Shown: positions 21,866-44,306, counted from the first letter of the stretch. The stretch: DNA of 63,377 nt from Gemmatimonadales bacterium (GCA_036395695.1 DASWDA010000028.1:1-63377); one strand, 5' to 3'. Notes: a model not told the origin generated them from the sequence alone. Translations and numbers: made by a program.

Positions 21866-21866
<1 letters not shown>

Positions 21867-23794: not shown

Positions 23795-24296
23795 CGGAAG
23801 CCTCGTCTCCGCTCGCTTACTCGTGTTCCGCGTGGGAGCACTGGTGTGCGCCGCCGAGGTGGACCAAGTGCGGGAGATTCTCCCGCGCCTCCCAACGACG
23901 CGTATCCCGGGCGCGCCCCCGGTCGTGGCGGGGCTCGTGAATGTCCGCGGCACTCTGGTGACGGTCGTGGAAGGGTGGCGTGCGCTGGGCCAGGCACCGC
24001 CGGGTTCGCCCGCATCCCCCCCCGCCGAGACGTCCCAGACTCAAGCGCCTGAGGCTGCGGGCTCGACGATCATCCTCGAGATGGGCAAGGGTGAGTCGGG
24101 GGGCGAGGGACAGCTGATCGGGTTTACGGTGGATGAGGTGATGGACATGCTCGCGGGTGGTGCGACGACGCTGGAAGACCGCACCGGTCTTCCGGGCGTC
24201 GATCCCACGCTGGTGCGGGCGGTCGGGCGGCGGAATGGTGAACTGTTCATCGTGTTGGACGTCGCGGCGCTGTTGGGCCCGATTCTGACTACTTAA
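23787..24296 (+). CDS. cheW: CheW-domain coupling protein (with Pro/Ser- and Gly-rich insert)
   Basis: LLVFRVGALVCAAEVDQVREI and VVAGLVNVRGTLVTVV CheW blocks. ATG 23787 overlaps the rluD 3' end by 8 nt. Confidence 0.8.
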   Translation: MTDGSLVSARLLVFRVGALVCAAEVDQVREILPRLPTTRIPGAPPVVAGLVNVRGTLVTVVEGWRALGQAPPGSPASPPAETSQTQAPEAAGSTIILEMGKGESGGEGQLIGFTVDEVMDMLAGGATTLEDRTGLPGVDPTLVRAVGRRNGELFIVLDVAALLGPILTT

Positions 24297-24306
24297 GGAG
24301 CGCGCA

Positions 24307-24669
24307 GTGAGCCACACGGTTCTCGTCTGTGACGACGCGATCTTCATGCGCACGATGATCACCGACATCCTGGCGCAGGCCGGATTCGAGATCGTCGGCG
24401 AGGCGGAGACCGGCACGCAGGCCGTCGAGAAGTATCGGCAACTCAAGCCGGACCTGGTCACGATGGACATCGTGATGCCCGACATGGGCGGCATCGACGC
24501 GGTCCGCGAGATCGTGAAACAGGATCCCGACGCGAAGATCCTGATGTGCAGCGCCATGGGGCAGCAGGCGCTGGTGGTCGAAGCCATCCAGGCGGGTGCC
24601 AAGGACTTCGTCGTCAAGCCGTTCCAGCCCTCCCGCGTCCTCGAAGCCGTGCAGCGCGTTCTGGGCTAG
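24307..24669 (+). CDS. cheY: CheY-like single-domain response regulator
   Basis: Receiver motifs VCDDA, DLVTMDIVMP, SAMG and KPF. GTG start preceded by AAGGAG. Confidence 0.9.
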   Translation: MSHTVLVCDDAIFMRTMITDILAQAGFEIVGEAETGTQAVEKYRQLKPDLVTMDIVMPDMGGIDAVREIVKQDPDAKILMCSAMGQQALVVEAIQAGAKDFVVKPFQPSRVLEAVQRVLG

Positions 24670-24671
24670 CG

Positions 24672-26615: not shown

Positions 26616-26628
26616 TTAAGGGAGCGAC

Positions 26629-27246
26629 ATGGAAGACGTCCGGGATCTAAAGGCGCTGCAGCTCGACGCGCTCAGAGAAGTCGCCAACATCGGCGCGGGC
26701 CATGCGGCGACGGCGCTGTCGCAGCTCACGCACCGGCGCATCATGATCTCGGTGCCGGAGATCAACATTGCCCGGCTCGAAGACGTGCCGGGGCTGATCG
26801 GCGATCCGCAGGAAGTCGTCGCCGCGGTCCTCATGCACATGCTCGGCGATTTGACGGGACGCACGCTGCTCATGTTCCCCGAGCCCGTCGGCCGGCAGCT
26901 GTGCGACATGCTGCTCAAGCGCCCCCTCGGGACGACCCAAACGTTCGAGACAATCGAGCAGTCGTGCATCAAGGAGGCGGGCAACATCCTCTCGGGCGCG
27001 TACATGAACGCGCTGTCGGAGTTCATGGGGATGCTGCTGCTGCCGTCGGTGCCGAGCCTCGTGGTGGATCTCTCGGCGGCGGTCCTCACGACGACGTACC
27101 TGAACTTCGGGCACGACCGGGACTTCGTGTTTTGCGTCGAGACCGAGTTCAATATCGATGCCCAGGACGGGCTGCGCGGCCATTTCCTGCTCCTGCCCGA
27201 CCTGGCGTCGCTCAAGGCGATTTTCGACGCCATTCGGTTGACTTGA
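26629..27246 (+). CDS. cheC: CheC-type CheY-P phosphatase
   Basis: Two D/S-x3-E-x2-N sites: DALREVAN and SCIKEAGN. Confidence 0.85.
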   Translation: MEDVRDLKALQLDALREVANIGAGHAATALSQLTHRRIMISVPEINIARLEDVPGLIGDPQEVVAAVLMHMLGDLTGRTLLMFPEPVGRQLCDMLLKRPLGTTQTFETIEQSCIKEAGNILSGAYMNALSEFMGMLLLPSVPSLVVDLSAAVLTTTYLNFGHDRDFVFCVETEFNIDAQDGLRGHFLLLPDLASLKAIFDAIRLT

Positions 27247-29942
27247 CGGTCTCAGAGCGTGACGTAGCGGTCCTGAGGTCCTTTGCCCGCCGGATCGATC
27301 CCTCCGATGCGGGCGCGCATAACAATCTCGGCGTTCTCTATTACCAAAAAGCCCTCGTCCCCGAGGCGATCGAGCAGTTCACCCGCGCCCTCGAGCTCGA
27401 CCCGCGCATGCAGGTCGCGCAGCGGAATCTCGAGATCGCCTACCACAACACCGGGTACTACGACCGCCGCGTGGCCGAGCTCCAGGAGAAGCTGCGCAGC
27501 GCGCCCGACGAGCGCGACGCGCGCTGGGAGCTGGGCCGCACGTACGCGATCATGGGCGCCTCCGAGGAAGCAGTCGCCGAATTCGAAGAGCTGCTGGCGC
27601 ACAAGCCCAAGGACGTGGCGGCGATCATCCAGCTCGGACTCGCCGAGAAGTCCCGCGGACGCCTGGAAGTGGCGACCGAGTGGTTCCTGCGGGCCGTCGA
27701 AGAAGAGCCGGACTCCTCCGTCGTCCACTTCTATCTTGGCGAGGTCTACTACAACCGCGGGCTGAACGAGCCGGCGCTGACCGCCCTCGAGCGCGCCGTC
27801 TCGCTCAATCCCGACAACGCGAACGCGCATTACCTGATGGCGTTCGTGCTGGGCGACATGGGGCGGCACCAGGACGCGCGCGCCGCGTCGAAGCGCGCCA
27901 TCCAGCTGAACCCGCCGCTGGCGCGCGCGCAGACCAACCTGTCGCTGGAGCGCTACCGCGCCGAACGCCAGTCGGCCGAGCACCGCCTGCGCGAGCACCC
28001 CGCGCCCGAGGTCGTCGAGGGGAGCGAGCTCGCGCATTACAACCTCGGCCTCGCGTTCCGGCAGAAGGGCTACTACGCCGAGGCGCTGCGCGAGTACCGC
28101 CTCGCGATCGACCGCGGCGAGGATCGCAGGCTGGTGCGCCAGGCGATGGCGGAAGTCCATCTCCTCAAGCGCGACTTCACCGATGCGCTCGAGCTGTACG
28201 AGTCGCTGATCCATGAGATCCCCGACTCGCCCAAGCTCTGGAACGAGCGCGGCGTCGTGTTGCATCAGGCGGGCCGGACGGCGGACGCGCTGACGTCCTA
28301 CCGTCAGGCGACGGAGGTCGATCCCCGCTACGCGCTCGCGTGGAACAACATCGGCGTCGTGCTCGCGCATCAGGCCGATACCGAAGATGCGATCGAGGGA
28401 TTTCGGAAAGCCTTGCAGCTTTCGCCGGCGTTCGTCGGCGCCCGCCTCAACCTCGCGCTGCTCCTGACCCATCTGCGCCGCTTCCAGCTCGCGCTCGAAG
28501 CGTATCGCCAGGTGCTGGCGGAACAGCCGGGCTCCGCGCCGGCGTGGAACGGCGTGGGGCTCGTGCTCGTCGAGCTGAAGCGCTTCCCCGACGCCCGGAA
28601 CGCCTTCGTCCGGGCCGTCGAGGCTGATCCGCAGAACGCGGGCGCCCACTACAACCTCAGTTTCACGCTCTCGAACCTCGGCGACTACGACGGCGCGCTG
28701 CGCGCGACCAAGCGCGCGCTCGAGCTGGACCCGTATTACGTGTCGCAGAAGTTCGCGCTGGCGATCGATCTGCAGTATGAGACGGTCGCGATCGGCATCG
28801 TGCCCGAGATCTCGGCCGACGTCGCGGCCGAGAGCCTGGGCGGCGACTTCGCGTTCGACCAGCGGCTGCTCGACAACATCTTCCAGGAGCTGGAGCCGCC
28901 CGCGGGCGCGGCCCAGGCCGCGCCCGCCGGCCTGGCCAAGCGGGCGGACGATCCGCTGGCCTTGGCGCGCGATTACGTGAGCAAGGGAATGATGGACCTC
29001 GCCGTGGCGGAAGCGATGCGCGCCGTGCAGCGCGGCGCGGACCGGGGCCAGGCCGCCACGCTGATCGGCGACAGCTATGCCCGCCGCGGCCTGCACGGGG
29101 AGGCGCTGGAGCGCTACCGCGAGGCGCGCACGCTCGATGCCGCCAACGCTCCGGCCGCGCTCGGCGAGGTGAAGAGCCTGCTCGCCGTGCACCGCTCCGC
29201 CGAAGCGCTGCCGCTCGCCGAAGCGCTGGTCGCCCAGGCGCCCGAAGACGTCGAGGTGCTCGTCGCCGCCGCGAAGGCGCGCGCGGCGACGGGCGACGCG
29301 GCCAGCGCGCTGACGGCGCTGCGGCAGGCGCAGACCCGCGCGCCGAACAGGGCCGATCTGCACAAGCTGCAGGGCGACATCGCCCTGAAAGTCGGCGACC
29401 GCCAGGGCGCCCGCGCGGCGTACCGTTCGGCGCTCGATCTCGATGAAGGGTTCGTGCAGGTCTGGCTCGATCTCGGGCGGCTGCACGAACAGGACGAAGA
29501 GTGGGTGGAAGCGCAGCGCGCGTACGAAGCGGCGCTCGAAGCGCTGCCGACCTTCCACGAGGCGGGGCTCGCGCACGCCGACCTGCTCCGGCGCACGGGG
29601 AGTCTGCGGACCGCCGTCGTGCGGCTCGCCGAGATGCTGGAGCAGGATCCTTACGACATGGACGCGCTGCTCCTGCTCGGTCGCACGCTGCTCGACGACA
29701 AGCGCAGCGTCGAGGCGCTCGAGGCGTTCCGGCGCGCGCTGAAATTCGACCCCGAGCACACCGGTGCACTGTTCTACCTGGGCGTGACGCTCGCGAAGCT
29801 GCAGCGCTACACCGAAGCGGTGGCCGCGTGGGACCGCGTGACGCGCATCGATCCGGGCGGGCCGTTCGCGCAACGCGCGCGGATGCACGCGCGGACCGCC
29901 GTCGACCTGCAGCACATCTTCGCCACCTCGGACGCGGCCTAG
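27243..29942 (+). CDS. large TPR-repeat protein (~899 aa)
   Basis: Repeated A-x-x-Y-x-x-A-L-x-L-x-P TPR units throughout (NLGVLYYQ..AIEQFTRALELDP and similar). Start set at TTG 27243, overlapping the cheC stop. The upstream part of track ORF 26901..29942 overlaps cheC out of frame. Confidence 0.7.
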   Translation: MTVSERDVAVLRSFARRIDPSDAGAHNNLGVLYYQKALVPEAIEQFTRALELDPRMQVAQRNLEIAYHNTGYYDRRVAELQEKLRSAPDERDARWELGRTYAIMGASEEAVAEFEELLAHKPKDVAAIIQLGLAEKSRGRLEVATEWFLRAVEEEPDSSVVHFYLGEVYYNRGLNEPALTALERAVSLNPDNANAHYLMAFVLGDMGRHQDARAASKRAIQLNPPLARAQTNLSLERYRAERQSAEHRLREHPAPEVVEGSELAHYNLGLAFRQKGYYAEALREYRLAIDRGEDRRLVRQAMAEVHLLKRDFTDALELYESLIHEIPDSPKLWNERGVVLHQAGRTADALTSYRQATEVDPRYALAWNNIGVVLAHQADTEDAIEGFRKALQLSPAFVGARLNLALLLTHLRRFQLALEAYRQVLAEQPGSAPAWNGVGLVLVELKRFPDARNAFVRAVEADPQNAGAHYNLSFTLSNLGDYDGALRATKRALELDPYYVSQKFALAIDLQYETVAIGIVPEISADVAAESLGGDFAFDQRLLDNIFQELEPPAGAAQAAPAGLAKRADDPLALARDYVSKGMMDLAVAEAMRAVQRGADRGQAATLIGDSYARRGLHGEALERYREARTLDAANAPAALGEVKSLLAVHRSAEALPLAEALVAQAPEDVEVLVAAAKARAATGDAASALTALRQAQTRAPNRADLHKLQGDIALKVGDRQGARAAYRSALDLDEGFVQVWLDLGRLHEQDEEWVEAQRAYEAALEALPTFHEAGLAHADLLRRTGSLRTAVVRLAEMLEQDPYDMDALLLLGRTLLDDKRSVEALEAFRRALKFDPEHTGALFYLGVTLAKLQRYTEAVAAWDRVTRIDPGGPFAQRARMHARTAVDLQHIFATSDAA

Positions 29943-29945
29943 CGT

Positions 29946-31094
29946 ATGGCGATCGAAGGACCGCTCCGCGAGCTCGGGATCCACGACGTCTTCCAGCTGC
30001 TCGACTTGAGCCGGAAGACGGGCGCGTTGCGGGTCACCTCCGAGCTGCGCCACAACGAGGGCAAGATCTACTTCGATAACGGCGTCGTGGTGTCGGCGGA
30101 GATTCGCAGCAACCCGCACCCGCTCGGTGCGCTGCTGCTGCGCACCGGCAAAATCGCCGAGGCCGATCTCGAGCGGGCGCGTGACATGCAGCAGCGGCAG
30201 GGCGACAAGCGCCGCCTCGGCGAGATCCTCGTGGCGCTCGGCGTCATCACCCAGCGCGAGGTCGAGCGCCAGATCCACTTCCAGATCGAGGAAGTCGTCT
30301 TCGAGGTCATGAGCTGGAACGAAGGCTACTTCTCGTTTGCGGAAGAGGCCGAGAGCAAGGTGCCCACCGAGGTCACGGTCCGCATCCCGGTGGAAGCGCT
30401 CTTGATGGAAGGCGCGCGCCGCATCGATGAATGGTCCCGGATCGAGAACCGCATTCCCCACGTCGGCGTCGTGCCCTCGCTCGCGCCGCCGCCCGAAGGC
30501 GGCGGCGGCGAGCTGGATCTCCTGCCGCCCGAGTGGGAAGTGCTCGCGCTCATCGACGGCGACCGCTCCGTGCGGGGCCTCGCGACCGAGCTGGGGCGGT
30601 CCGATTTCGAAGTCGCCAAGACGCTGTTCGGCCTCGAAAGCGCCGGCGTGATCGTCCTCGTGGATCCCGGGACGGCCAAGCGCGGACGGCCGGGCGCCGG
30701 CAGTGACCTCGCGGAGCTCGTCGCAGAGCTGATCGCGAAGGCTGAGACTGCCCTGCACGCCAAGGACCTCGACGCCGCCCGCGCCGCCGCCGAGCAAGCC
30801 GGCAGTATGCAGCCGCACGACGCGACGATTCATCTCCTGCTCGGCCGCATCCACCTGGCGCAGGGGCACGCGTCCGCCGCTGCCGAGGAGCTGCGGCGCG
30901 CGCTGCGGCTCGATCCGTTGCTCGCCGCGACGCATCGCTACCTGGGATTCGCCCTCGTCGCGATGGGCCGGTTCGGCGAAGCCGTGCAAAGCTGGGACCA
31001 GTGGGAGCGCCTGGCGCGCACGACGGAAGAGGAGGCGTACAAACCGGACGTGCAGCGCGCCCGCGAAGCCGCGCGAGTGTTCAGCAATGGCTGA
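29946..31094 (+). CDS. PATAN (DUF4388) domain protein with helical insert and C-terminal TPR
   Basis: N-terminal GPLRELGIHDVFQLLDLSRKTGALRV, typical of DUF4388/PATAN. Tandem RLGxxLV..Q helical motifs, then TPR-like repeats. Confidence 0.7.
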   Translation: MAIEGPLRELGIHDVFQLLDLSRKTGALRVTSELRHNEGKIYFDNGVVVSAEIRSNPHPLGALLLRTGKIAEADLERARDMQQRQGDKRRLGEILVALGVITQREVERQIHFQIEEVVFEVMSWNEGYFSFAEEAESKVPTEVTVRIPVEALLMEGARRIDEWSRIENRIPHVGVVPSLAPPPEGGGGELDLLPPEWEVLALIDGDRSVRGLATELGRSDFEVAKTLFGLESAGVIVLVDPGTAKRGRPGAGSDLAELVAELIAKAETALHAKDLDAARAAAEQAGSMQPHDATIHLLLGRIHLAQGHASAAAEELRRALRLDPLLAATHRYLGFALVAMGRFGEAVQSWDQWERLARTTEEEAYKPDVQRAREAARVFSNG

Positions 31095-31911
31095 CGAGAT
31101 CCGCGCGCTCTCGGCGCAGCTCGCGCAGGATCCACAGAGCCTCGTGTTCCTGCGGCTGGGCGAAGCCTTGCGCCGCAAGGGACAGCTCGATTCCGCGACC
31201 CGAGTCGCGATGAACGGGCTCGAGCGGCATCCGCATCTCGCCGACGCGCACGACTTGTACGCGCGGATCCTGACCGACAAGCACGATTACGCGCGCGCGT
31301 TCGACGAGTGGGACATGGCCGTCCGGATCGCGCCCAACCATACCGGCGCCCTGAAGGGACTCGCGTTTCTCTATTTCAAGGTCGGCGATATCGCCCAGGC
31401 CGAAACCCATCTCGAGCAGGCGCGCAAGGTCGAGCCCGACGATCCGACCATCGACCAGGCGTTTGAGATGATCCGCGGCGGGGCACATGCGCCGCCCGCC
31501 GCCGCCCCTTCGCCGCCCCCCGCCGCCCCAGCGCCGGCAGCGGGTGCGCTCGATGAAACGCGCGTTTTCGCGGGATTAGAGGGCGCCAACGAAGGCCTCC
31601 TGCTCATCGACGGCGCGGGACGTGTCCTGGGTGGGTCGCTCCGCGATCGATCGGGCTCGGATGTCACCGACAGCGTCGCCGCCTATCTTGCCGGCGTCTC
31701 GCAGGAAGCGGCCCGGACCGCGAAGCTGCTGGGGCTGGGAGCCTGGAACGGTTTGTCGGCGGAAGGACAGCACGGCAACGTGCACCTGGCGCATCCGACG
31801 CCCGAAGCGCTGCTCCTCGTCGTCCGCGAGCGCGGGACGCCGCTCGGCCGCCTCGCGATTCTCGCGCAGCGGGCGACGGCGCTGGCGCGCCGCTGGCTGG
31901 AGCGGCAATGA
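31087..31911 (+). CDS. TPR - Pro/Ala linker - Roadblock/LC7 fusion protein
   Basis: N-terminal TPR units, an APSPPPAAPAPAAG linker, and a C-terminal Roadblock-like block GLLLIDGAGRVLGGSL...ALLLVVRERGTPLGRL. Confidence 0.68.
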   Translation: MADEIRALSAQLAQDPQSLVFLRLGEALRRKGQLDSATRVAMNGLERHPHLADAHDLYARILTDKHDYARAFDEWDMAVRIAPNHTGALKGLAFLYFKVGDIAQAETHLEQARKVEPDDPTIDQAFEMIRGGAHAPPAAAPSPPPAAPAPAAGALDETRVFAGLEGANEGLLLIDGAGRVLGGSLRDRSGSDVTDSVAAYLAGVSQEAARTAKLLGLGAWNGLSAEGQHGNVHLAHPTPEALLLVVRERGTPLGRLAILAQRATALARRWLERQ

Positions 31912-32261
31912 CGAAGGGCGGACCACTCGATCTGATCACCCGCGTGCGAGGCGTCCGCGGCGCGATGCTGGTCTCGGCGGAGGACGGCCTCGTCGTGGCC
32001 GAGCAGCTCATGGAGGGGATCAAGGGCGGCGCCGTGGCCGCGCTCGCCGCGAGCCTCGCCGGCCGCCTGCGCCGGGCGATGGAAGCGGCGGGGACCGGGA
32101 CGAGCGTCTTTTGGCACCTGCAGGCGGAGCAGGGCGCGCTGCTGGTCGTTCCCGGTGGGCACAATGCCGGTGGCATCCTGGTCGTCGCGGTTGCGGAGCC
32201 CGATGTGAACATCGGCCTGGTGCGCCTCGAGCTACTGCGAGCGGCGGAGACGATGGTATGA
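31908..32261 (+). CDS. Roadblock/LC7 domain protein (MglB-like)
   Basis: 117 aa. VRGVRGAMLVSAEDGLVVAE...GALLVVP...ILVVAV pattern. ATG overlaps the previous stop. Confidence 0.75.
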   Translation: MTKGGPLDLITRVRGVRGAMLVSAEDGLVVAEQLMEGIKGGAVAALAASLAGRLRRAMEAAGTGTSVFWHLQAEQGALLVVPGGHNAGGILVVAVAEPDVNIGLVRLELLRAAETMV

Positions 32262-32734
32262 GTCAACAGACCCGCGCCGTCGAAAACTGGACGCTGCAAC
32301 CGCTCACCGACTTCGTGCGGGAAGCATCGGCGCGCCTGGTCCTGGTGCTCACGCCGTCGGGGCAGGTGCTGGCGCAATCGGGATTCTCGCGCGCCGTCGA
32401 TGTCATGTCGTCCGCGGCGCTGGCGGCGGCGATCGTCGCCTCCACCGGCGAGCTGGCGCGCCAGCTGCGGCAGCCGCCCTTCGCGGCGCTCAGCCATCAG
32501 GGGCCCAAGACCGGTTTCTTCCTGGCCACCTTCGCGACCGATCGCGGCACGCTGGCGGTGCTCGCCGTCTACGATATGGACGTTTCATCGCTCGGCTTGG
32601 TTCAGTTATTCTATGAGCAGCTTGCGGCGGACTTGAAGACGGCGAGTCCGAAGGGGGCGGTCCCCAAGCAGGTGCTCGCGGCCGACTTCGAGCGCGAGTT
32701 GACGGACAGCCTCAACACGCTGTTTGGGAGATAG
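32258..32734 (+). CDS. Roadblock/LC7-like protein with C-terminal extension
   Basis: [18 protein letters not shown]...GFFLATF...LAVLAVYD pattern. ATG 32258 overlaps the previous stop (ATGA). Confidence 0.62.
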
Positions 32735-32736
32735 CG

Positions 32737-33339
32737 GTGTCCCTGGTCAACTTCACGACCCGCGAGATCACGTGCAAAATCGTCTACTACGGACCTGGGC
32801 GGTCCGGAAAGACGACCAATCTCCATTACATTTACGGCCGCGTGCCGGAAACTCGGCGCGGGCGCATGGTGTCGCTCGCTACGCAGACCGACCGCACCCT
32901 GTTCTTCGACTTCCTGCCGATCGATCTGGGCCAGATCTCCGGATTCTCGACGCGGTTTCAGCTCTACACCGTCCCGGGCCAGGTCTATTACAACGCCACG
33001 CGGCGACTCGTGCTCCAGGGCGCGGACGGCGTGGTGTTCGTCGGGGACAGTCAAGCCCGGCAGCTCGATGAGAATGTCGAAAGTCTGCAGAACCTCCAGA
33101 GCAATCTGCTCGAGCACGGCATCGATGTGCGCACCATGCCGCTGGTGATGCAATACAACAAGCAGGACCTGCCCGCCGAGCTGATCCTGCGGCAGGAGGA
33201 CCTCGACGACGCGCTCAACTTCCGGAGCGTGCCGAGCTTCGCGGCCGACGCGCTGCACGGCAGAGGGGTGTTCGAGACCCTCAAGTCGATCTCGGAGCTC
33301 GTGCTCAAGAGGCTGGCGGCGGGAACCCCCGCGACATGA
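32737..33339 (+). CDS. mglA: MglA-family Ras-like small GTPase
   Basis: Collinear with Myxococcus MglA as I recall it: [15 protein letters not shown] (P-loop), [11 protein letters not shown] (intrinsic Arg), YTVPGQ (catalytic Gln), NKQD. Confidence 0.93.
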
Positions 33340-35288
33340 CCAGCACGCTCAATCCCCGCTTCACGTTCGACACGTTCGTGGTCGGCGCGGCGAACCGCCT
33401 GGCCGTCACCGCCGGGCGTACCGTCGCGGAGAATCCGGGCTCGGCCTACAACCCGCTCTTCATCTATAGTGGCTCGGGGTTGGGCAAGACGCACGTGCTG
33501 ATGGCCATCGGGCACGCCGCCAAGGTCATCGCGTCGCAGCTGAACATCGAGTACCTGACGCTCGACGAGTACGTCGAGGCGTTCCACGCCGCGATCGCGG
33601 CGGGGCAGGGCGACGCTTTCCGGCGCCGGTTCCAGAACGTCGATGTGTTGCTCGTCGACGACGTCCAGTTCCTCACCAATCGCAAGGAGATGCAGACCGA
33701 GCTGCTTCGCCTGACCGAGGCGCTGCAGCAGTCAGGGCACCAGATCGTGCTCGCGAGCGATCGCCCGCCGGCCGAGATCGCGGACCTGGACGAGCGTCTC
33801 ATCTCGCGCTTTTCCGGCGGGCTCGTCGTCGATATGGGCATCCCCGACTACGAAACACGCGTCGCCATTCTGCGCCGCAAGGCCGAGGAGCGTGGCACGA
33901 AGTTCCAGCCGGGAGTCCTCGAGACCGTCGCGAAAATCGAGTACCCGAACGTGCGCGAGTTGATGGGCGCGCTCAATCGCCTGATCGCCTTCCAGGCGGT
34001 GAACGACACGCCGATCAATGCCGATGCCGCGAGCAAGGTGTTGGGTATTCCTACCGGCGCTTCACCGACCGCCGCCTCATCTACCGCCGCTTCATCTACC
34101 GCCGTCTCACCAGATGAGTTTTCCCAGTTCCTGACCGATGTCACCGTCACGGTCGGCAAAGCCGTCGAGGCGTGGCGTGCGCGGGTGACCGAGGCGGTGA
34201 TGCGCTGGGAGGGCGAGGGCTACCGGACGGGCCGCCTCGAAAAGCTCCTCGATCAGGAGACGCCGGCCGCGGTGGACGAAGTGATCGCGTCGTACGTGCG
34301 GGACGTGGACCGGCTCAAGGCGCTCGAGGCGGAAGTGGCGGTGCTCGATCCCCAGGCCGCGGGTGAGAAAGTCTTCCGCGATCCCGACCACATGGAAGCC
34401 GCCGAGGCGGCCGCCGCGAAGGTTCGGGACGGCGCGGCCCCGCCGCCGGCTCCGTCGGGCGCATTTCCGCTCGACGCGTACCTTGCCGGGCCGTCCAACG
34501 AGGTGGCCCTGAACGCCGCGCGCGATTGTGTCGCGAAGCCCGGGACGAAATACAATCCCCTCGTGATCGTCGGCCGCAGCGGGCTCGGCAAGACGCACCT
34601 GCTCAACGCGATCGGCCTCGAGCTCGCGAAAAAGAAGAACGCGGTGGTCGCCTGCCTGTCGACCCAGCAGTTCGTCGACGAGCTGATTGCCGCCATTGAC
34701 GGCAACCGGGTGGACTGGTGGCGCGCGCGCTATCGGCGCGCGACGGCCCTGCTGCTCGACGACATCCATCTGCTCTCCGGCAAGGAGCGCACGCAGGAAG
34801 AGCTGTTCAACCTTTTCAATCAGCTGGTCGACGCCGACCGGCAGCTCATCTTCACGGCGCCCGCGCATCCGAACACGCTCGAGGGCCTCGAGGAGCGCAT
34901 CGTGTCGCGGCTCGAAGGCGGGCTCGTGACGGAGATCGCGGAGCCGGACAAGGAGCTGCGCCGGAGCATGCTCGAGCGCCTGCTCACCCACCAGCACGTG
35001 GCGCTCGAGCCGGCGCTGCTCGACTACCTGGCGGACCGGCCCATCGATTCCGTCCGCAACCTGACCGGCGTGGTTCAGCGCGTGGTCGAGGCCGCCGCCG
35101 CGCAGGACGCGCCCGTGACGGCGGGTCTGGCGCGCGATGTGCTGGAGGGAGCGCCTCCGCCGCGCCGCACGGCGGGGCTGCGCACCAGCGGCATCGTCGT
35201 GTCGAGCGCCGGCGGCGTGCGCAGCCGGGAGAAGATGGTCTGGGACTGGCCCACCGCTGCTGATCGCGTCATCGAGGATCTGCGCTGA
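33336..35288 (+). CDS. tandem double DnaA-type AAA+ ATPase lacking DnaA domains I and IV
   Basis: Two copies of the DnaA domain-III motif set. Copy 1: GSGLGKTHV / LLVDDVQFL / SRFSGGL / [11 protein letters not shown]. Copy 2: [10 protein letters not shown] / LLLDDIHLL / SRLEGGL / [11 protein letters not shown]. No C-terminal HTH. The ATG overlaps the mglA stop. Confidence 0.8.
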
Positions 35289-36904
35289 TGGCCATCAAAG
35301 GCTCGCTCAAGGAAGCGTCGCTCCCCGACGTGCTGCAGCTCCTGGCGCTGGGGCAGAAAACCGGCTGCCTGTCGATCGCCGACCGCTCCAACTTCGGCTA
35401 CATCTATTTCGACCGGGGCCGGATTTCCTACGCGTCGATCGTGAACCGCCGCGATCGGCTCGGCGACATCCTCGTGAAGCACGAGAAGATCACGCAGGAC
35501 CAGCTGGACGCCGCGATCCACCGCCAGGCGAAAGAGCGCGACAAGAAGCTGGGCGAGATTCTCGTGCTCCAGAGCGTGCTCACGCAGCAGGAGCTCGAGC
35601 GCTACATGCGCATGCAGATCGAGGAGTCGGTCTACTATCTCTTCACGTGGACGCAGGGCACGTTCAACTTCGAAGCCGACGTCCGCCCGGAGCAGCAGGA
35701 CTTCCTGGTCTCGATCAACCCGGAGTCCCTGCTGCTCGAGGGCGCGCGGCGCGTGGACGAGTGGGGCCTGATCGAGAAAAAGATCCCGTCGTTCGATCTG
35801 ATCTTCCTCGTGGACCGCGACCGCCTGGCCATCAGCGACGCAAAGCTGACGGAAATGCAGGATCGCCTGCTGCCGCTGCTCGACGGCTCGCGCGACGTCA
35901 ATCAGGTCATCGAAGATTCCGGCCTGGGGGAATTCGAGGTCGGGAAGGCGCTCTACGGCCTCGTCACCGCCGGCTTCCTGCATCGCGCCGGCCGCACCGC
36001 CAGCGCTGAAGACGTGAAGATGACCGACGCGCGGGTGGAGGAGCACCGCAACCTCGGCATCGCCTTCTACAAGACGGGCATGCTCGACGAAGCGGCGCGC
36101 GAATTTCGCCGCGTCGCCGAGCTGCGCGCGACGGATGCCAACGCGCACTTCTTCATCGGCCTGGTCGCGCTGAAGCAGGCGCGCTGGCGCGAGGCAATGG
36201 AAGCGCTGCGGCTCGCCGCCGAAAAAGGCGGGTCACGGCCCGCCGTGCTCCACAATCTGGGGCTCGCCTACGAGCAGGTCGGCCGGCTGGAGGATGCGGA
36301 AGCGGCCTACTCCGAGGCGGCCACGCGCGCGCGCACCGATCCACGGGTGTACGTGGGATGGGGCATCGTCGCGCTGAAGCAGGGCGACCATGCCAGCGCC
36401 GCCGGGCGGCTCGACCGCGCCAAGGAGCTGTTCGCCGACAAGGTGCCCCCGATCTGGTTCTGGGCGCGCGCACTCGTCGCGGCGTCGGCGGGCGATTTCG
36501 AGACGGCGGAACAGGTGGCCGTGCAGGCCGTCGAAAAGCATCCGCACAACGGCGTGTTGCGCAACAATCTCGCCGTGCTGCACGAGCTGGCGGGTGCGCT
36601 GCCACAAGCCGAGGAGCTGGCGCGCGCCGCGCTCCAGGACGAGCCGTCCCTGCCGCAGCTGTCCAAGAATCTCGGCGACCTGGCCTACCGCGGCTCGCGC
36701 TACGATGAAGCCTGGGCGCTGTATCAGCGCGCGATCGAGCTGTCGCCCGAGCTGGGCGATGACGTCTACTTCAAGCTCGGCAACATCGCGTACAAGCGAA
36801 ACGAGCGCGACCAGGCGAGCGAGCTGTGGCGGCGCGCGCTCGAGCTGAATCCCAAACACGAGCTCGTCAAGGCCAATCTGGACACCCTGAGCAGTTTGTC
36901 GTGA
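35288..36904 (+). CDS. PATAN (DUF4388) domain protein with helical insert and long C-terminal TPR region
   Basis: GSLKEASLPDVLQLLALGQKTGCLSI N-terminus. Paralogous to 29946..31094 over the first ~230 aa, then multiple TPR units. Confidence 0.7.
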   Translation: MAIKGSLKEASLPDVLQLLALGQKTGCLSIADRSNFGYIYFDRGRISYASIVNRRDRLGDILVKHEKITQDQLDAAIHRQAKERDKKLGEILVLQSVLTQQELERYMRMQIEESVYYLFTWTQGTFNFEADVRPEQQDFLVSINPESLLLEGARRVDEWGLIEKKIPSFDLIFLVDRDRLAISDAKLTEMQDRLLPLLDGSRDVNQVIEDSGLGEFEVGKALYGLVTAGFLHRAGRTASAEDVKMTDARVEEHRNLGIAFYKTGMLDEAAREFRRVAELRATDANAHFFIGLVALKQARWREAMEALRLAAEKGGSRPAVLHNLGLAYEQVGRLEDAEAAYSEAATRARTDPRVYVGWGIVALKQGDHASAAGRLDRAKELFADKVPPIWFWARALVAASAGDFETAEQVAVQAVEKHPHNGVLRNNLAVLHELAGALPQAEELARAALQDEPSLPQLSKNLGDLAYRGSRYDEAWALYQRAIELSPELGDDVYFKLGNIAYKRNERDQASELWRRALELNPKHELVKANLDTLSSLS

Positions 36905-37680
36905 GCAAAGCTCCTCTGGAGCGAGGTTTCGAAGCGCTGACGGAAAAGATCTCACGCGAGCGGGGAGTCAGCTGCGGGTCGTACAAGGATAAATGCCTGA
37001 AGCGCCGCATCGCGGTGCGCATGCGCGCCCGCGGCGCCCATACCTACGAAGACTACGGCAAGATTCTCGATCACGACGCGCACGAGTACCAGGAGCTCCT
37101 CGACGCGCTCACGATCAACGTCACCAAGTTCTTCCGCAACGCCGAAACCTGGACCGCGCTCCGGCCCCATCTGGAGGCGCTCGCCAGGAGACGTCCCACA
37201 CTGCGGGTGTGGTCGGCGGGATGCGCCTCGGGCGAGGAGCCGTACACGATCGCCGTGCTCATGACAGAGCTGGGCGCCCAGGGTGTCATCGACGCGACCG
37301 ACGTCGATCGATTGAGCCTCGAGCGCACCCGGCAGGCGCATTATCCGGACGCGGCGTTCACCGAGATGCCGTCGCACCTCAGGCGCCGCTATTTCGAGGG
37401 CGGCCGGCCGGTGCACGAGGTCCGCGAGCTCGTGCGCGTCCAAAGCCACGATTTGATGCGGGAGCGTCCCCCGCATCCGCCGTACGACCTGATCGTGTGC
37501 CGCAACGTCGTGATTTACTTCGAGCGCCAGGCCCAGGAGCGGCTGTTTCAGACCTTTGTGGATGCGCTGGCGCCCGGGGGCGTACTCCTGCTCGGAAAAG
37601 TCGAAACCCTGTTCGGCCCCGCGCGCGAGCGCCTCACTCTCGTCGATCCGCGCGAGCGGATTTACGTACGGCCCGGGTGA
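36901..37680 (+). CDS. cheR: chemotaxis protein methyltransferase CheR
   Basis: INVTKFFRN, VWSAGCASGEEPY and IVCRNVVIYF blocks. GTG 36901 overlaps the upstream stop (GTGA). Confidence 0.88.
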   Translation: MSKAPLERGFEALTEKISRERGVSCGSYKDKCLKRRIAVRMRARGAHTYEDYGKILDHDAHEYQELLDALTINVTKFFRNAETWTALRPHLEALARRRPTLRVWSAGCASGEEPYTIAVLMTELGAQGVIDATDVDRLSLERTRQAHYPDAAFTEMPSHLRRRYFEGGRPVHEVRELVRVQSHDLMRERPPHPPYDLIVCRNVVIYFERQAQERLFQTFVDALAPGGVLLLGKVETLFGPARERLTLVDPRERIYVRPG

Positions 37681-38159
37681 AAGAAGTCATCGTCAAAGTC
37701 GCCGATTGGGCGGCCGAGCGTGGCGATGGCGTCCTGGTCACCCTCGGACTCGGTTCCTGCGTCGCGATCATGCTGCACGATCCGCAAACCAGAACGGGCG
37801 CGATGGCGCACGTCCTGCTGCCGTCGACCAGCCTCGTGCGCGATCTCACGAACCGCGCCAAGTTCCCGGAAACCGCCGTGCCGCTGCTCATCGAGCGGCT
37901 CAAGGCGCTCGGGGCGGACCCGCGGCGACTCGTGGCAAAGCTGGCTGGCGGCGCCCGCATGTTCAGCCAGCTCGTCACCCCCGGCACCATCCAGATGGGC
38001 GAGCGCAACGTCCTGGCCTCGCGCACCGCGCTCCGCGCCGCGGCCATCCCGGTCATTCGTGAGGCCGTGGGCGGCGACCGCGGCCGCAGCGTGCGGTTTT
38101 ACGTGACGGATGGCCGGGTGGAGATCCGGTCGGTGGGAGTCGATGCCGCCGTCATCTGA
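37677..38159 (+). CDS. cheD: chemoreceptor glutamine deamidase CheD
   Basis: [14 protein letters not shown] (catalytic Cys), MAHVLLP and GERNV blocks. GTG 37677 overlaps the cheR stop. Confidence 0.85.
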
Positions 38160-39234
38160 CGCGTCCGGCCGCCCGAGCGTCGTCGTCGCCGACGACAGCG
38201 CGCTGATGCGCCGAGTGCTGGTCGATGTCCTCGGCGCCGAGTTTCGCGTCGTCGCCACGGCGCGCGACGGTCTCGACGCGATCAGCAAAGTGCACGAGCA
38301 CAGGCCCGACGTCGTCACGCTCGATCTCGAGATGCCGCGGCTCGATGGGCTGGGCGCCATCGGCTACATCATGTCCGAGTCGCCGCGGCCGATCGTCGTC
38401 GTCAGCGCGCACGCCGGGCCGGGCACGCAGTCCGCGATTCGCGCCCTCGAGCTGGGCGCGGTGGAAATCGTCGCCAAACCGCCCCCCGAAGTCTTCGGTC
38501 ATCCGCGCGCCGCGCTCGAGGCGCTCGCGCCGGAGCTCATCGGCGCCGTGCGCCGGGCGCTCGCGGCGGACCTCTCGCACGTCAAGGTGTTGGCGCGCCC
38601 GCCGGCGCCGGTGGTTCACCCGCCCGAGCACGCGCTGCGCGGGCGCGCCGTGCTCGCCGTGGGCGTCGCCGCCTCGACCGGTGGTCCGCGCGCGCTCGCC
38701 GACGTCGTCCCGCGCCTGCCGACGGGGCGCGGCGCCGCGATCTTCATCGTGCAGCACATGCCGCCGAAGTTCACGCGCAGTCTCGCCGAGCGGCTCGACT
38801 CCATGAGCCCGTTGCGCGTCGTCGAGGCGGCCGACGGCACCCCGATTGTGGCTGACACGGCGTACGTGGCCCCGGGCGATTATCATATGCGGGTGCGTTC
38901 TGCTCCCGACGGACCTGTCATCGCGCTCGACCAATCCGCGCCCCTGTGGGGCGTCCGTCCCGCGGCCGATCCCTTGTTCCGCTCCATCGCCGAGGTCTAT
39001 GGCGCCCGCGGCATTGGGGTCGTGCTCACGGGCATGGGGCGCGACGGGGCCAGCGGCCTGCGCGCGATGCATGATGCCGGCGGCACCGGGCTCGCCCAGG
39101 ATCGGGAAACGGCGGTGATTCCAGGAATGCCGGTGGCGGCGGTGCAGGCGGGCGGCGTCGATGCGGTCCTCCCGCTCGGTCAGATTGCCGACCGCGTCGC
39201 AGCCGAGTTGCTGCGGAGACGGCAGAAATCATGA
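38143..39234 (+). CDS. cheB: protein-glutamate methylesterase/deamidase CheB (REC + esterase)
   Basis: Receiver ([20 protein letters not shown]) and esterase ([22 protein letters not shown]) blocks. The track start at 38110 is also possible. Confidence 0.9.
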
Positions 39235-39240
39235 CTCGAC

Positions 39241-39313
39241 AGGCTAAAGCCTGCGCTCGGCAATGCGGTGTCCTTAAGGACAATGTTGTGCCGAGCCCAC
39301 CCTTGAGGGTGGG
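39241..39313 (+). promoter_or_regulatory. structured leader: three consecutive hairpins in the only sizeable gap of the che cluster
   Basis: AGGC-TAAA-GCCT (39241-39252). GCTCGGCA...TGCCGAGC (39255-39296) with an inner TGTCC-TTAA-GGACA stem. CCCACCC-TTGA-GGGTGGG (39296-39313), ending 6 nt before ATG 39320. Confidence 0.4.
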
Positions 39314-39319
39314 AAAACC

Positions 39320-39739
39320 ATGAAGGGTTATTTGCTCGTGCGTTCCGAGGGGAAATCGTACGGCCTGCCAGTCGCCCGCGTGCTCGAGGTGGGTGACGCC
39401 ACGGAAGTGCTTGCCATTCCGCGCAATCTGCCCGCGGTGCGGGGCCTGACGCCGCTGCGCGGACGGCTCGTCCCGCTGATTCATCTGGGTGCGCTGCTCA
39501 CGGGGAGCGAAGCACCACCCGCCGGCGGCCACGCGGTGCGCACGGTCGTCCTCGTCGAGCTCGGCGCGAGCGGGCGGCAGGTCGCCTTCGAAGTCGATGA
39601 CGCCGATGCGGTCGTGCGCGAGCAGCCGCTGCCCGTGCCGCGCGGCCAGGCGCTGCCGTGGGCGGCCGGGGTGGCGGAACGGGAGGGGGGATTGGTGCCG
39701 ATCCTCGACCTCGACGCGCTCGGGGATCGCATTACGTGA
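39320..39739 (+). CDS. cheW: CheW-domain protein
   Basis: YLLVRSEGKSYGLPVARVLEV and VRGLTPLRGRLVPLIHL blocks. Confidence 0.8.
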   Translation: MKGYLLVRSEGKSYGLPVARVLEVGDATEVLAIPRNLPAVRGLTPLRGRLVPLIHLGALLTGSEAPPAGGHAVRTVVLVELGASGRQVAFEVDDADAVVREQPLPVPRGQALPWAAGVAEREGGLVPILDLDALGDRIT

Positions 39740-40212
39740 CGACCACGACGTTGAGCTCGGGCGGCGACGATGTGCAGCTGGTCACGTTCAAAGTGGGCGG
39801 CCAGGATTTCGCGTTCAACATTTTTCAGGTCGAGCGCATCCTGCGGTATGAAGCGCCCGCGCCGTTGCCGAAGGCGCCCGAGTTTCTCGAGGGCGTGCTG
39901 CAGTATCAGGGCGGTGCCGTGCCGCTCATCGATCTGCGCAAGCGGCTCGGCGCGGAGGCGCCGCTGCGCGAGGACACGCGGACCGTCATCCTCGAGTTCG
40001 ATGGCGGCAAGATCGGCATGATTGTCGACACCGTGACCGAGGTGATGCAGGTATCCGCGCAGGCGGTGACGCCGCCGCCGGGCATCGTCCGCGGACTGGC
40101 CGCGGAGTACATCTCCGGCCTCCTCGTGCAGAACGGACGCACGATCGTCGTCCTGAACACGAACAAGCTGCTGAACTCGAAAGAAAAACTGGCTCTGCAG
40201 GGAGCCACGTGA
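39736..40212 (+). CDS. cheW: CheW-domain protein
   Basis: LVTFKVGGQDFAFNIFQVERIL, FLEGVLQYQGGAVPLIDL and IGMIVDTVTEV blocks. GTG 39736 overlaps the upstream stop. Confidence 0.85.
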   Translation: MTTTTLSSGGDDVQLVTFKVGGQDFAFNIFQVERILRYEAPAPLPKAPEFLEGVLQYQGGAVPLIDLRKRLGAEAPLREDTRTVILEFDGGKIGMIVDTVTEVMQVSAQAVTPPPGIVRGLAAEYISGLLVQNGRTIVVLNTNKLLNSKEKLALQGAT

Positions 40213-41081
40213 TGGCTGAAACACCGGTCGCGGCGCTGCGCCGGGAATACGATGCCATCGCCCGGCAGCTCGAGGGGGGGGGCCCCTCGGGCAACGCCGA
40301 GCGCGAAGCCGCCAAGCGGGAGATCATCGCCTTTTTCAAGAAGGTCGACGGGATGCTGGGCGAGATGACCCAGTTGAAGGACGACATCCGCCAACTCGTC
40401 GATCGCTACAAGCAGCTGGCCGCCGACACCAAGCAGGCCGCGGCGCCCGAGTTCACCGGGCAGCGACCCGTGCTGCATGCCGATCATATCGGCGCGACCA
40501 CGTTCATCGAAAAGGGATGGAGTCTCATCTCGTTGGGCGACCACGCCGGGGCGATTCAAGCGCTCACCAAGGCACTCCAGCTCTCGCCCGGGGAGACGCA
40601 GGCGGAATCGCTGCTCGGCTGGGCACAGATGCTGCACGAGGACTACGACGATGCCCTCGGCACCTTCCAGAAAGTGCTGATGAAGGAGCCCGCCAATTCT
40701 CTCGCGCGCATCAACGTCGGCTACATCTGCCTGAAGAAGCGGATCTTTGGCGAAGCGATCGAGCATCTCTCGAAGGCGATCCGGCTGGACAACGACAAGA
40801 AGGCGACGCTGTACGCCCATTTCTATCTCGGGCTCGTCTACCTGCAGCGCGAGATGTTCGAGGACGCGGAGACGTTCTTCGAGAAGACCATCAAGCTCGG
40901 CCCGAATCTGATCGAAGCCTATTACGAGCTGGGACGCGCGCACTGGTTCGCCGGCGACCAGGACAAGGCCAAGTCCACGTGGGGGGACGGCTTCAAGGCG
41001 AACAAGTTCAATCCCTGGGGCAAGAAGTGTCAGGAGATGCTGGAGCTTGTCGCCAAGGGCGAGGAGCCGCCGCGAGAATAG
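40209..41081 (+). CDS. coiled-coil + TPR protein
   Basis: N-terminal coiled-coil segment, then TPR units (AIQALTKALQLSP, ALGTFQKVLMKEP, AIEHLSKAIRLD, ETFFEKTIKLGP). Confidence 0.7.
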   Translation: MMAETPVAALRREYDAIARQLEGGGPSGNAEREAAKREIIAFFKKVDGMLGEMTQLKDDIRQLVDRYKQLAADTKQAAAPEFTGQRPVLHADHIGATTFIEKGWSLISLGDHAGAIQALTKALQLSPGETQAESLLGWAQMLHEDYDDALGTFQKVLMKEPANSLARINVGYICLKKRIFGEAIEHLSKAIRLDNDKKATLYAHFYLGLVYLQREMFEDAETFFEKTIKLGPNLIEAYYELGRAHWFAGDQDKAKSTWGDGFKANKFNPWGKKCQEMLELVAKGEEPPRE

Positions 41082-41977
41082 CGCTGCTTGCCCTGCTGCT
41101 GCAGGGTCCGGTTGCACCGTCGCATCCCCCCGTTGCCATCACCGTTGGGCGCGTGACCGCGATTGCCTGGCCGACGCAGGAGGGGCTCGCCACGTCGCTC
41201 GCGGAGGTCGCCGATCATGCGCGCGACTTCCCCGGCATCGGCGCCATGCCCGACCGTCCCATCCGGCTGATCCTCGCGCCGACGCGCGCGCAGTACGACT
41301 CGCTCACGCGCGGCCGGCTGCCGCTCTGGAGCGAAGGCGCCGCGTTCCCGGATGCCGGGACGATCGTGCTGTTGACCGTCCAACCGTCCGCCCGTCCGGC
41401 CGTCCTCCGGCACGAGCTTGGCCACCTCGCGCTGCGCTGGCACGTCGGTCGCTACGTCCCCCTCTGGTTTGAAGAAGGTTATGCCGCGGTCGCGGCCCAG
41501 GAGTGGGACCGGCTCGACGCGTTGCGCCTGAACTGGCAGCTCGCGCGCGGCGTGCGCATGGATCTCGACGACGTCGATCGGGCGTTGCGGGGCGCGCGGG
41601 GCGACGCGGAGACGGGCTATGCGCTCGCGACGACCGCCGTGCTCCTGCTGGAACGCTGGGGCGGGGATCGCGGACTCGCGCCGCTGCTCGCCAACCTGCG
41701 CTCGGCCGAGTCGTTCGATGCCGCGCTGCGCACGACCTACCACGTCACAGAAGGCGATTTCGAGCTGCGCTGGCAGCGCGACGTCGGCTCACGCTACGGC
41801 TGGCTGTCGTGGCTGGCGGCGCTTGGATTCTTCTGGCTGGCGATCGGCGCGCTGCTCGTCGCGCTGATCGGGCTGCGGCGCAGACGCGACCGGCGCAAGC
41901 GCGCCGCACTGGAGGCGGAGGGCGCCGCCGAGGCGGATGAAAGCCAACTGCTTGACGATGTTGGGATTAACGAATAG
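41027..41977 (+). CDS. peptidase-MA-like zinc metalloprotease with C-terminal TM anchor
   Basis: HELGH zinc motif followed by WFEEGYA. C-terminal TM WLSWLAALGFFWLAIGALLVALIGL, then a basic stretch. Start uncertain: GTG 41027 is the nearest ATG/GTG/TTG-type start upstream of the signal-like IALLALLLQG segment. Confidence 0.55.
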   Translation: MSGDAGACRQGRGAAARIALLALLLQGPVAPSHPPVAITVGRVTAIAWPTQEGLATSLAEVADHARDFPGIGAMPDRPIRLILAPTRAQYDSLTRGRLPLWSEGAAFPDAGTIVLLTVQPSARPAVLRHELGHLALRWHVGRYVPLWFEEGYAAVAAQEWDRLDALRLNWQLARGVRMDLDDVDRALRGARGDAETGYALATTAVLLLERWGGDRGLAPLLANLRSAESFDAALRTTYHVTEGDFELRWQRDVGSRYGWLSWLAALGFFWLAIGALLVALIGLRRRRDRRKRAALEAEGAAEADESQLLDDVGINE

Positions 41978-44171: not shown

Positions 44172-44245
44172 GGGGCTGTAGCTCAGCTGGTTAGAGTGCC
44201 GGTCTGTCACACCGGAGGTCGCGGGTTCGAGCCCCGTCAGCCCCG
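44172..44245 (+). tRNA. tRNA-Asp (GUC anticodon)
   Basis: Hand-folded: acceptor GGGGCTG/CAGCCCC, D arm GCTC-AGCTGGTTA-GAGT, anticodon arm CCGGT-CTGTCAC-ACCGG, T arm GCGGG-TTCGAGC-CCCGT. Confidence 0.9.
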
Positions 44246-44263
44246 CCTCAAGGTTCCGACCGC

Positions 44264-44301
44264 AAACCCCCGCCCCTTTGTGGCGGGGGTTTTCTTATTT
44301 T
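44264..44301 (+). terminator. rho-independent terminator after tRNA-Asp
   Basis: AAACCCCCGCC, 7-nt loop, GGCGGGGGTTT, followed by TTTTCTTATTTT. Confidence 0.78.
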
Positions 44302-44306
44302 GGAGC

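Follow-up and report, generated by a model that had tools for sequence, protein, structure and literature searches.

A tandem DnaA-family AAA+ protein without a DNA-binding domain in an MglA/Roadblock gene cluster of Gemmatimonadales

We analyzed a stretch of 63,377 nucleotides (nt) from the genome of a soil Gemmatimonadales bacterium (GCA_036395695.1 DASWDA010000028.1:1-63377; hereafter, the window). The open reading frame (ORF) 33336..35288 on the plus strand starts with ATG and encodes a protein of 650 amino acids (aa), here called dDnaA. It consists of two consecutive copies of the AAA+ core of DnaA and has no DNA-binding domain. Its gene stands between mglA and a gene for a PATAN and TPR protein, within a cluster of Roadblock, TPR and chemosensory (che) genes. 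The DnaA-family core itself is already known. The architecture and the context of this protein are what is new here. On balance, we lean toward reading dDnaA as a DnaA-derived, nucleotide-dependent switch or scaffold of a PATAN/TPR/Roadblock polarity-output module, and not as a replication initiator. It is the gene context that suggests this function.

Two DnaA modules in a single chain

The original prediction, made from the sequence alone, described the product as two domain III modules of DnaA without domain I or domain IV. Pfam, TIGR00362 and Foldseek agree with this description. Pfam finds two PF00308 (Bac_DnaA) domains, at aa 5-166 (E 2.3e-56) and aa ~377-532 (E 3.5e-45), and neither Bac_DnaA_C (PF08299) nor DnaA_N (PF11638) in the protein. 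The chain starts at the domain III boundary. Likewise, tblastn with DnaA domain III gives exactly two matches in the window (33333-34043 and 34464-35147). The same search with DnaA domains I and IV gives no match in the window or in 93 related loci.

Both modules fall in the DnaA clade by profile and structure searches, and not in another AAA+ clade, the outcome named beforehand as a possible refutation. Each half covers positions ~100-335 of the 437-position DnaA model TIGR00362, with 281 and 230 bits. Each single module is below the cutoff of that model (343.9 bits), while the summed score of 509 bits is above it. The cutoff of the Hda model TIGR03420 is 194.8 bits; the modules reach 88 and 98 bits and the entire protein 182. 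With the other Hda/HdaA models (NF006571 and NF005982) dDnaA is far under the cutoffs of 268-300, and IstB and DnaC/DnaI models give scores 5-10 times lower than DnaA. A regular-expression search for the Hda-type beta-clamp-binding motif (QL[SDP]LF-like) found none in dDnaA.

Domain III of Bacillus subtilis DnaA (8bv3/8btg) matches module 1 from end to end (E 3e-60). The identity of module 1 to DnaA is 43% (208 bits). For module 2 this value is 34% (156 bits), and between the two modules it is 33% (139 bits). The family medians follow the same order: 165 bits for module 1 with DnaA, 131 for module 2 with DnaA and 93 for the modules with each other. Each module thus resembles domain III of canonical DnaA more than it resembles the other module, and module 2 is the more diverged copy, as had been predicted. 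The canonical-length match nearest to module 1 (P0223) is a Myxococcota DnaA, and no Gemmatimonadales DnaA was among the cluster look-ups.

An AlphaFold2 model of dDnaA was built on a family alignment of 41 sequences. Its mean predicted local distance difference test score (pLDDT) is 86.4. The best Foldseek match of this model in the PDB is the DnaA domain III 8bv3_A, with a TM score of 0.94 and a root-mean-square deviation (rmsd) of 1.5 A. It is followed, in order, by the DnaA domain III structures 2z4r_A (TM 0.90), 3r8f, 1l8q and 2hcb. In the model, both modules have two helices between beta2 and beta3, at the site of the DnaA initiator-specific insertion.

Module 1 (aa 1-236; 33336..34043, plus strand) is a complete domain III. 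It carries Walker A with K51 (GSGLGKTH, aa 46-53, nt 33471-33494), Walker B D108/D109, sensor I S141-D142-R143, box VII R154/R158 and sensor II R207. Module 2 (aa 377-606; 34464..35153, plus strand) carries Walker A K419, Walker B D475/D476, box VII R521/R525 and sensor II R574. The only motif of dDnaA that is not intact is sensor I of module 2, where TAPA replaces TSDR. All the motifs first quoted are present, including the change from SDR to APA, and the position given for Walker A of module 1 was exact. For Walker A of module 2, the motif and its start (34572) were right, and the end lies 4 nt further than predicted, at 34601 (aa 413-422). With the motifs of module 1 intact and, sensor I apart, those of module 2 as well, dDnaA is a predicted ATPase.

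The modules are joined by a low-complexity stretch and a helical linker, as originally described. The first is encoded by a 15-nt tandem repeat (34051..34109, plus strand; TRF period 15, 3.9 copies, 81% matches). The joint at aa 242-261 has pLDDT <50 and is predicted to be disordered. The lengths of close homologues group at 645, 650 and 655 aa, with some in between, and this pattern suggests that repeat copies come and go five residues at a time. The linker (aa 258-372; 34107..34451, plus strand) is specific to the family and contains the motifs DEFxxFL, RWxxEG[YF]RTxRLExLL and FRDPD. Its predicted helices (262-294, 299-305, 313-337 and 350-365) make a four-helix segment at aa 262-365. Pfam, run on the linker of the window protein and on 22 family linkers, and a PDB-sequence profile search gave only chance-level matches to it (E ~0.01 or higher). 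At the C-terminus, a disordered tether (aa 611-635) leads to the conserved motif EKxVWxWPxxxDRxIEE (35226..35285, plus strand). This tail has no Pfam or PDB sequence match.

We counted the motif residues in 69 members of the family. The Walker A lysine is present in 69/69 members in module 1 and in 55/69 in module 2, and the first aspartate of Walker B in 69/69 and 57/69. Sensor I retains Asp-Arg in 52/69 members in module 1; in module 2, the aspartate is found in 30 and the arginine in 34. The box VII arginine finger shows the opposite trend, with 51/69 in module 1 and 59/69 in module 2. The sensor II arginine is kept in 62/69 and 45/69, and the lid of module 2 is missing in 18 members. In ~14 of the 69, module 2 has no P-loop, Walker B or lid, and nearly all of these keep box VII, typically DDRLRSRFEGGL. 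Such asymmetry would be expected if what is conserved as a functional unit is an ATP site in module 1 to which module 2 contributes the arginine finger.

The linker and the C-terminal motif are conserved to the same degree as the AAA+ cores. In the linker, 59-65 of the 69 members retain F265, G295, L301 and P350, and W291 is likewise near-invariant. In the C-terminal motif, found in all clades, K633 is kept in 59/69, W638 in 65/69 and P639 in 54/69.

Conserved gene context of the family

The gene upstream of dDnaA is a genuine mglA (32737..33339, plus strand). It encodes a small Ras-like GTPase of 200 aa, which matches Myxococcus xanthus MglA (5ymx/6izw) over its full length with E 1.5e-72. 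In this alignment, TVPGQ stands in place of DxxGQ, and the intrinsic arginine is found in DRTLFFD. The mglA stop and the dDnaA start overlap as ATGA. Downstream, the dDnaA stop and the ATG of the gene for PATAN + TPR protein 2 have one base in common (TGATG). Both predicted junctions are thus present in the sequence. PATAN + TPR protein 2 (538 aa; 35288..36904, plus strand) contains PATAN (DUF4388/PatA_N; PF14332, E 1.5e-38) and TPR.

dDnaA has more than 100 close homologues of 632-656 aa at >=89% identity, and near-identical relatives number in the hundreds, from soil metagenomes and Gemmatimonadales metagenome-assembled genomes (MAGs). Among GTDB contigs, with one genome per species, at least 199 stretches encode a relative. 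The close-locus counts refer to the best 80 of these 199 stretches (71-98% identity), nearly all labeled Gemmatimonadales or Gemmatimonadota. Directly upstream there is mglA in 79/80, and directly downstream a PATAN-TPR gene, also in 79/80. The order of the Roadblock, TPR and che genes is unchanged wherever the contigs extend to them. The 4-nt overlap of the dDnaA start with the mglA stop occurs in all 78 loci with an intact start (ATG in 48, GTG in 30). In 75 of these 78, the PATAN gene starts within 1 nt of the dDnaA stop (gap of -1, 0 or +1 nt). Two loci with about 75% identity and the same synteny (L045 and L061) come from MAGs labeled Myxococcales and Thermoleophilaceae; they are most likely mis-binned Gemmatimonadales contigs.

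We define the dDnaA family by two PF00308 modules, a helical linker with DEFxxFL, WxxEG[YF]xTxxLE and FRDPD, and a C-terminal EKxVWxWP. The window protein shows all these features and the adjacency to a PATAN gene. An exhaustive HMMER search against representatives clustered at 50% identity returned many relatives of ~650 aa, with identities as low as 33-35%, whose matches cover residues 1-650 without a break. Hence, this architecture is old. Outside the close set, the names are those of Gemmatimonadetes, Gemmatimonadota and Gemmatimonadales MAGs, and of one "Candidatus Cloacimonetes bacterium 4572_55". These few MAG labels suggest a range beyond Gemmatimonadota.

Relatives of 35-45% identity retain the order che - TPR - PATAN - TPR/Roadblock - Roadblock - MglB - MglA - dDnaA - PATAN/TPR. 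Some of them also retain the flanks, with rluD upstream and mraW-ftsL-ftsI downstream. Deeper clades differ. A low-GC clade (34% identity) has CheW-CheY-CheA-AAA_22-CheW-CheC-TPR-PATAN-dDnaA, and MglA and Roadblock are absent. The AAA_22 gene of this clade encodes a 272-aa nSTAND-like NTPase between cheA and cheW (L081 2035-2853; L093 3743-4561). Another clade holds a minimal set, Roadblock-dDnaA-PATAN/TPR-Peptidase_MA_2 right after rluD, with MglA and the Che genes absent. MglA was also undetected on short contigs, in L088, where dDnaA has just a TPR protein next to it, and in the phosphorelay cluster L094. The predicted linkage to mglA and Roadblock genes is thus conserved among the close loci (79/80 for mglA) and in the relatives of 35-45% identity, and mglA is absent from it in deeper clades.

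The most constant neighbor of dDnaA is the PATAN protein, usually with TPR and Roadblock. PATAN adjoins dDnaA in the distant loci L081-L085, L087, L089, L091, L093 and L095, including those that lack MglA. The exceptions are L088, the locus L094 and L086, a contig of 3.3 kb. Since PATAN is the most constant partner and MglA is absent in deeper clades, dDnaA belongs to a PATAN/TPR/Roadblock module, which MglA and Che join in this lineage. The family is conserved and apparently undescribed. It occurs with MglA/MglB and Che in Gemmatimonadales and several deeper branches, not everywhere.

Two further observations link tandem DnaA modules with signaling domains. In L094 (9249-11465), a dDnaA variant (P0214) carries a C-terminal receiver domain. 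It is surrounded by a PAS hybrid histidine kinase, a REC-HD protein and two Hpt/REC pairs. In an unrelated metagenomic contig (L090 1738-16490), three or four proteins with DnaA-type AAA+ lack domain IV. Two of them are tandem-DnaA proteins fused to MshEN (GspE_N), of 921 aa and 1876 aa, and in the longer one ~1100 aa of coiled coil separate the modules. These MshEN-DnaA genes are flanked by a prepilin peptidase gene (pilD) and a gene for a PilB-like MshEN-T2SSE ATPase.

Other non-canonical architectures with DnaA-type AAA+ exist in metagenomes (P0297, P0300, P0363, P0257 and P0197). P0297 has a single module, with WxxEG[FL]xTxxLE-like repeats that resemble the dDnaA linker on its N-terminal side and zinc ribbons on its C-terminal side. 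In P0257, one module comes after TPR repeats. P0197 has two modules, and its end resembles DnaA domain IV by eye.

The rest of the cluster in the window is also encoded on the plus strand. Immediately upstream of mglA there is an mglB-like Roadblock gene (32258..32734; 158 aa; Robl_LC7; E 5e-9 to M. xanthus MglB 6h5b_B), which has an ATGA overlap with the gene before it. This is a second Roadblock/LC7 gene (31908..32261; 117 aa; PF03259 E 1e-9; E 1.1e-6 to the Roadblock-domain protein 7f8m). It is preceded by a fusion of TPR families and Robl_LC7 (31087..31911; 274 aa) and by PATAN + TPR protein 1 (29946..31094; 382 aa; PF14332 E 4.8e-33). A large TPR protein (26901..29942; many TPR families) comes before them. 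Its homologues align from ~aa 120, and translation probably begins near 27250, downstream of cheC. The head of the cluster (23742..27246) consists of cheW (23742-24296), cheY (24307-24669), cheA (~24669-26615) and cheC/X (26629-27246), assigned by Pfam and, for CheY, as an ORF.

Downstream of PATAN + TPR protein 2, Pfam identifies CheR, CheD and CheB_methylest with REC (36901..39234). The genes are cheR (36901-37680; GTGA junction), cheD (~37680-38159) and cheB (38110-39234). Two cheW genes follow (39320..40212; 39320-39739 and 39658-40212, Pfam CheW). The conserved tail (40209..41977, Pfam) has a gene for a TPR protein (40209-41081) and one for a Peptidase_MA_2 protein within the ORF 40517-41977. 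Peptidase_MA_2 comes after the PATAN/TPR gene in distant relatives as well. At most junctions of the cluster, the genes overlap by 1-8 nt or lie a few nt apart. A promoter and terminator scan found nothing above the shuffled expectation (13 terminator-like sites vs 9.3 +/- 3.2). Tight junctions and the lack of an above-background terminator inside indicate that the cluster is probably one operon of ~18 kb.

Among the Pfam-scanned ORFs of the window there is no methyl-accepting chemotaxis protein, despite CheA, CheY, three CheW, CheC/X, CheR, CheB and CheD (23742-41977). The receptor of the cluster is either encoded elsewhere or unconventional. Among the scanned genes of the window, none was recognized as a RomR/RomX-type partner. 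The upstream flank (16721-23794) has the order yggS-divIVA-pnp-ileS-(small ORF)-lspA-rluD. The downstream flank (44196-56563) is the dcw cluster, mraW-ftsL-ftsI-murE-murF-...-murD-ftsW-murG-murC. These cell-division flanks recur in relatives of 35-39% identity (L084, L091 and L095).

Proposed role and alternative explanations

A signaling role is suggested by the fixed operon coupling, the receiver fusion, the MshEN fusions beside pilus genes, the binding of PATAN to Pil proteins and the TPR proteins that act as MglA effectors. In Synechocystis, PilC and the N-terminal part of PilB1 are bound by PATAN, an output domain of chemosensory systems that co-occurs with GspE_N/MshEN (bioRxiv 10.1101/2021.06.11.447907). 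TPR proteins such as SgmX are known effectors of MglA.

The motifs suggest how such a protein might work. Module 1 would be the catalytic ATP site. The box VII arginine finger of module 2 would reach this site within the same chain, forming a pseudo-dimer that mimics the head-to-tail DnaA-DnaA contact. The site of module 2 itself, with sensor I lost, would probably be regulatory or slow. The asymmetric motif conservation fits, and so suggests, a pseudo-dimeric ATP switch of this kind. The ATP state of the tandem unit would set its conformation or oligomerization. The helical linker and the tethered EKxVWxWP peptide are candidate docking sites, most likely for the adjacent PATAN and/or TPR proteins. 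Linker and tail are conserved with or without MglA, which makes contact with PATAN, TPR or the AAA+ modules likelier than contact with MglA. The complex might relay signals from MglA-GTP and Che to a machine at the pole, for which type IV pili and the apparatus of division and growth are plausible candidates. In this lineage, the module also includes MglA and MglB and would be connected to a phosphorelay of the Che type. We predict ATP hydrolysis, an arginine finger acting within the chain, the partners and the output from motifs and gene order.

Several observations weigh against this reading. The window has no pilus gene, and the link to type IV pili is indirect, since it comes from another tandem-DnaA family and from cyanobacterial PATAN proteins. 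The site next to the dcw cluster fits a role in division or growth equally well. The AlphaFold2 model has a predicted TM score (pTM) of 0.48, which leaves the relative position of the two modules unpredicted. Five members (P0126, P0134, P0148, P0153 and P0195) have lost both arginine fingers, so hydrolysis by an arginine finger cannot be universal in the family. Finally, module 2 keeps residues of the single-stranded DNA (ssDNA) binding surface of DnaA. We take these to be the equivalents of R245 and V211 of E. coli DnaA. They are R485, the B-motif arginine (in GKERTQEE), conserved in 25 of the 41 members counted for DNA-binding residues, and I451, the H-motif isoleucine, conserved in 20 of the 41. 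Their presence in about half of the members may leave room for nucleic-acid binding.

These residues would be central if dDnaA were an anchor of the polarity module on ssDNA or the nucleoid through the DnaA domain III surface. However, the equivalents in module 1 are both lost (H84 and E118), and the conservation in module 2 is partial. There is also no domain for binding double-stranded DNA that could provide targeting, and nothing in the gene context points to transactions on DNA. We consider such an anchor very unlikely. A regulator of replication initiation is unlikely too, although attractive. This protein would co-oligomerize with the genuine DnaA, as a filament cap or by Hda-like stimulation of hydrolysis, and couple polarity, chemosensory or division cues to initiation. 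The 43% and 34% identity of the modules to DnaA domain III, their greater proximity to DnaA than to each other, the two-helix insertion site in both and the retained box VII arginines agree with this idea. So does the place of the cluster between the divIVA-ileS block and the dcw cluster, also seen in distant relatives. Nevertheless, dDnaA has no Hda-type clamp motif and stays below the cutoffs of the Hda models, and several members miss box VII. The conserved partners are signaling proteins, and no replication gene, DnaA box or skew switch is nearby. Quite unlikely, in our opinion, is a mainly structural scaffold that binds ATP without turnover, a pseudo-enzyme hub for TPR, PATAN and Roadblock proteins. 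The loss of sensor I in module 2 here and of the whole P-loop in ~14/69, the members without arginine fingers and the strong conservation of the non-enzymatic linker and C-terminal peptide would favor it. Against it, all the catalytic motifs of module 1 are intact in dDnaA, and the Walker A lysine and Walker B aspartate of this module are invariant in the family, with the sensor II arginine in 62/69. Such invariance suggests that nucleotide chemistry, or at the least nucleotide binding, is under selection.

The replicative DnaA of the genome, or an IstB/DnaC-type helper ATPase of a mobile element, has a negligible probability. Relatives are annotated as "DnaA/Hda family protein", "hypothetical protein" or, by JGI/IMG, as "chromosomal replication initiator protein DnaA" (e.g. 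P0017, P0028 and P0107). The JGI label, carried by many members, would speak for a replicative DnaA; it arises because the summed modules pass the TIGR00362 cutoff though neither alone does. However, domains I and IV are absent. No DnaA box (TTATCCACA, <=1 mismatch) exists in the 63 kb, and the GC skew is positive throughout the window, with no switch. Without boxes or a skew switch, this is not an origin region. Neither dnaN nor another replication gene is nearby, and the neighbors are che, mglA, dcw and ileS/lspA/rluD genes. The original statement that this is not a replication locus is thus borne out. The low scores of the IstB and DnaC models, and a synteny that is stable over 80 species, unlike a mobile element, speak against the helper ATPase. 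We rejected replicative DnaA, Hda, an IstB/DnaC-type helper and an origin region because their defining features failed (domains I/IV, model cutoffs, clamp motif, DnaA boxes and skew).

The polarity-output reading also has a broader version, which we hold to be doubtful. In it, the ATP-driven head-to-tail assembly of DnaA would have been recruited, doubled and freed from DNA binding. This would have given rise to a new polarity or signaling element, a pseudo-dimer or filament gated by nucleotide, with input from MglA and the Che phosphorelay. Its PATAN/TPR partners would place the machine at the pole, for type IV pili or for budding and division. The element might also contact DnaA, tying polarity to replication initiation.

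Comparison with known systems

Compared with DnaA domain III (8bv3/8btg, Thermotoga maritima 2z4r, Aquifex aeolicus 1l8q/2hcb/3r8f), dDnaA has the same full PF00308 domain, Walker A and B, box VII and sensor II. In contrast, it has two modules per chain and lacks domain I, the domain II linker and the helix-turn-helix of domain IV. It is also encoded away from the origin, in a signaling operon, and has an added helical domain and a C-terminal peptide. Hda is a DnaA paralogue that acts in the regulatory inactivation of DnaA; it has a single module and an N-terminal clamp-binding motif. dDnaA resembles Hda/HdaA as a DnaA-family AAA+ protein without a DNA-binding domain, with an arginine finger possibly acting in trans. 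It differs in its two modules, in the missing clamp motif, in being closer to DnaA than to Hda and in its gene context. Type II tandem AAA+ proteins (p97/Cdc48, NSF and ClpB) also have two AAA+ modules per chain, one of them catalytically better conserved. However, the modules of dDnaA are of the initiator clade, are separated by a linker of ~140 residues and are not stacked. The whole-chain Foldseek comparison with p97 is poor (rmsd >20 A, 15% identity). Initiator-clade AAA+ proteins assemble into open spirals, not closed rings.

The MglA/MglB module of M. xanthus and Thermus, with Frz input and SgmX-type TPR effectors, shares MglA, an MglB-like protein, Roadblock, TPR and Che with the operon described here. 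The dDnaA operon adds an AAA+ ATPase. The literature searched gave nothing that links a DnaA-like ATPase with MglA, Roadblock, PATAN, pili or Gemmatimonadetes polarity, in line with the original remark that no MglA module with a DnaA-type ATPase had been described. In a survey of prokaryotic small GTPases, the neighborhood of Gemmatimonas aurantiaca GAU_1409 is listed as "PATAN>MglA>-PATAN>", and the unclassified gene "-" stands where dDnaA stands here (PMC4316618 Table S2). The cultured strain G. aurantiaca T-27 may have a related locus in the GAU_1409 region. The cyanobacterial PATAN pilus regulators PixE and PixG are another point of comparison, considering that PATAN is the most constant neighbor of the dDnaA family. 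Here, PATAN is fused to TPR instead of a receiver, the candidate partner is a DnaA-type ATPase, and pilus genes are absent from the window.

To our knowledge, the AAA+ core of DnaA is regarded as a single-purpose engine for opening the origin, and its known paralogues (Hda, DnaC/DnaI and IstB) all still handle DNA. For genome annotation, mislabeled dDnaA genes can mislead the prediction of origins in Gemmatimonadota MAGs. If the proposed role is correct, the DnaA engine has been reused for signaling or cell polarity, in a family conserved across a bacterial order and in deeper uncultured relatives. It would also provide the PATAN-TPR proteins with a candidate partner and add an ATPase to the MglA-type polarity systems, which so far are GTPase only.

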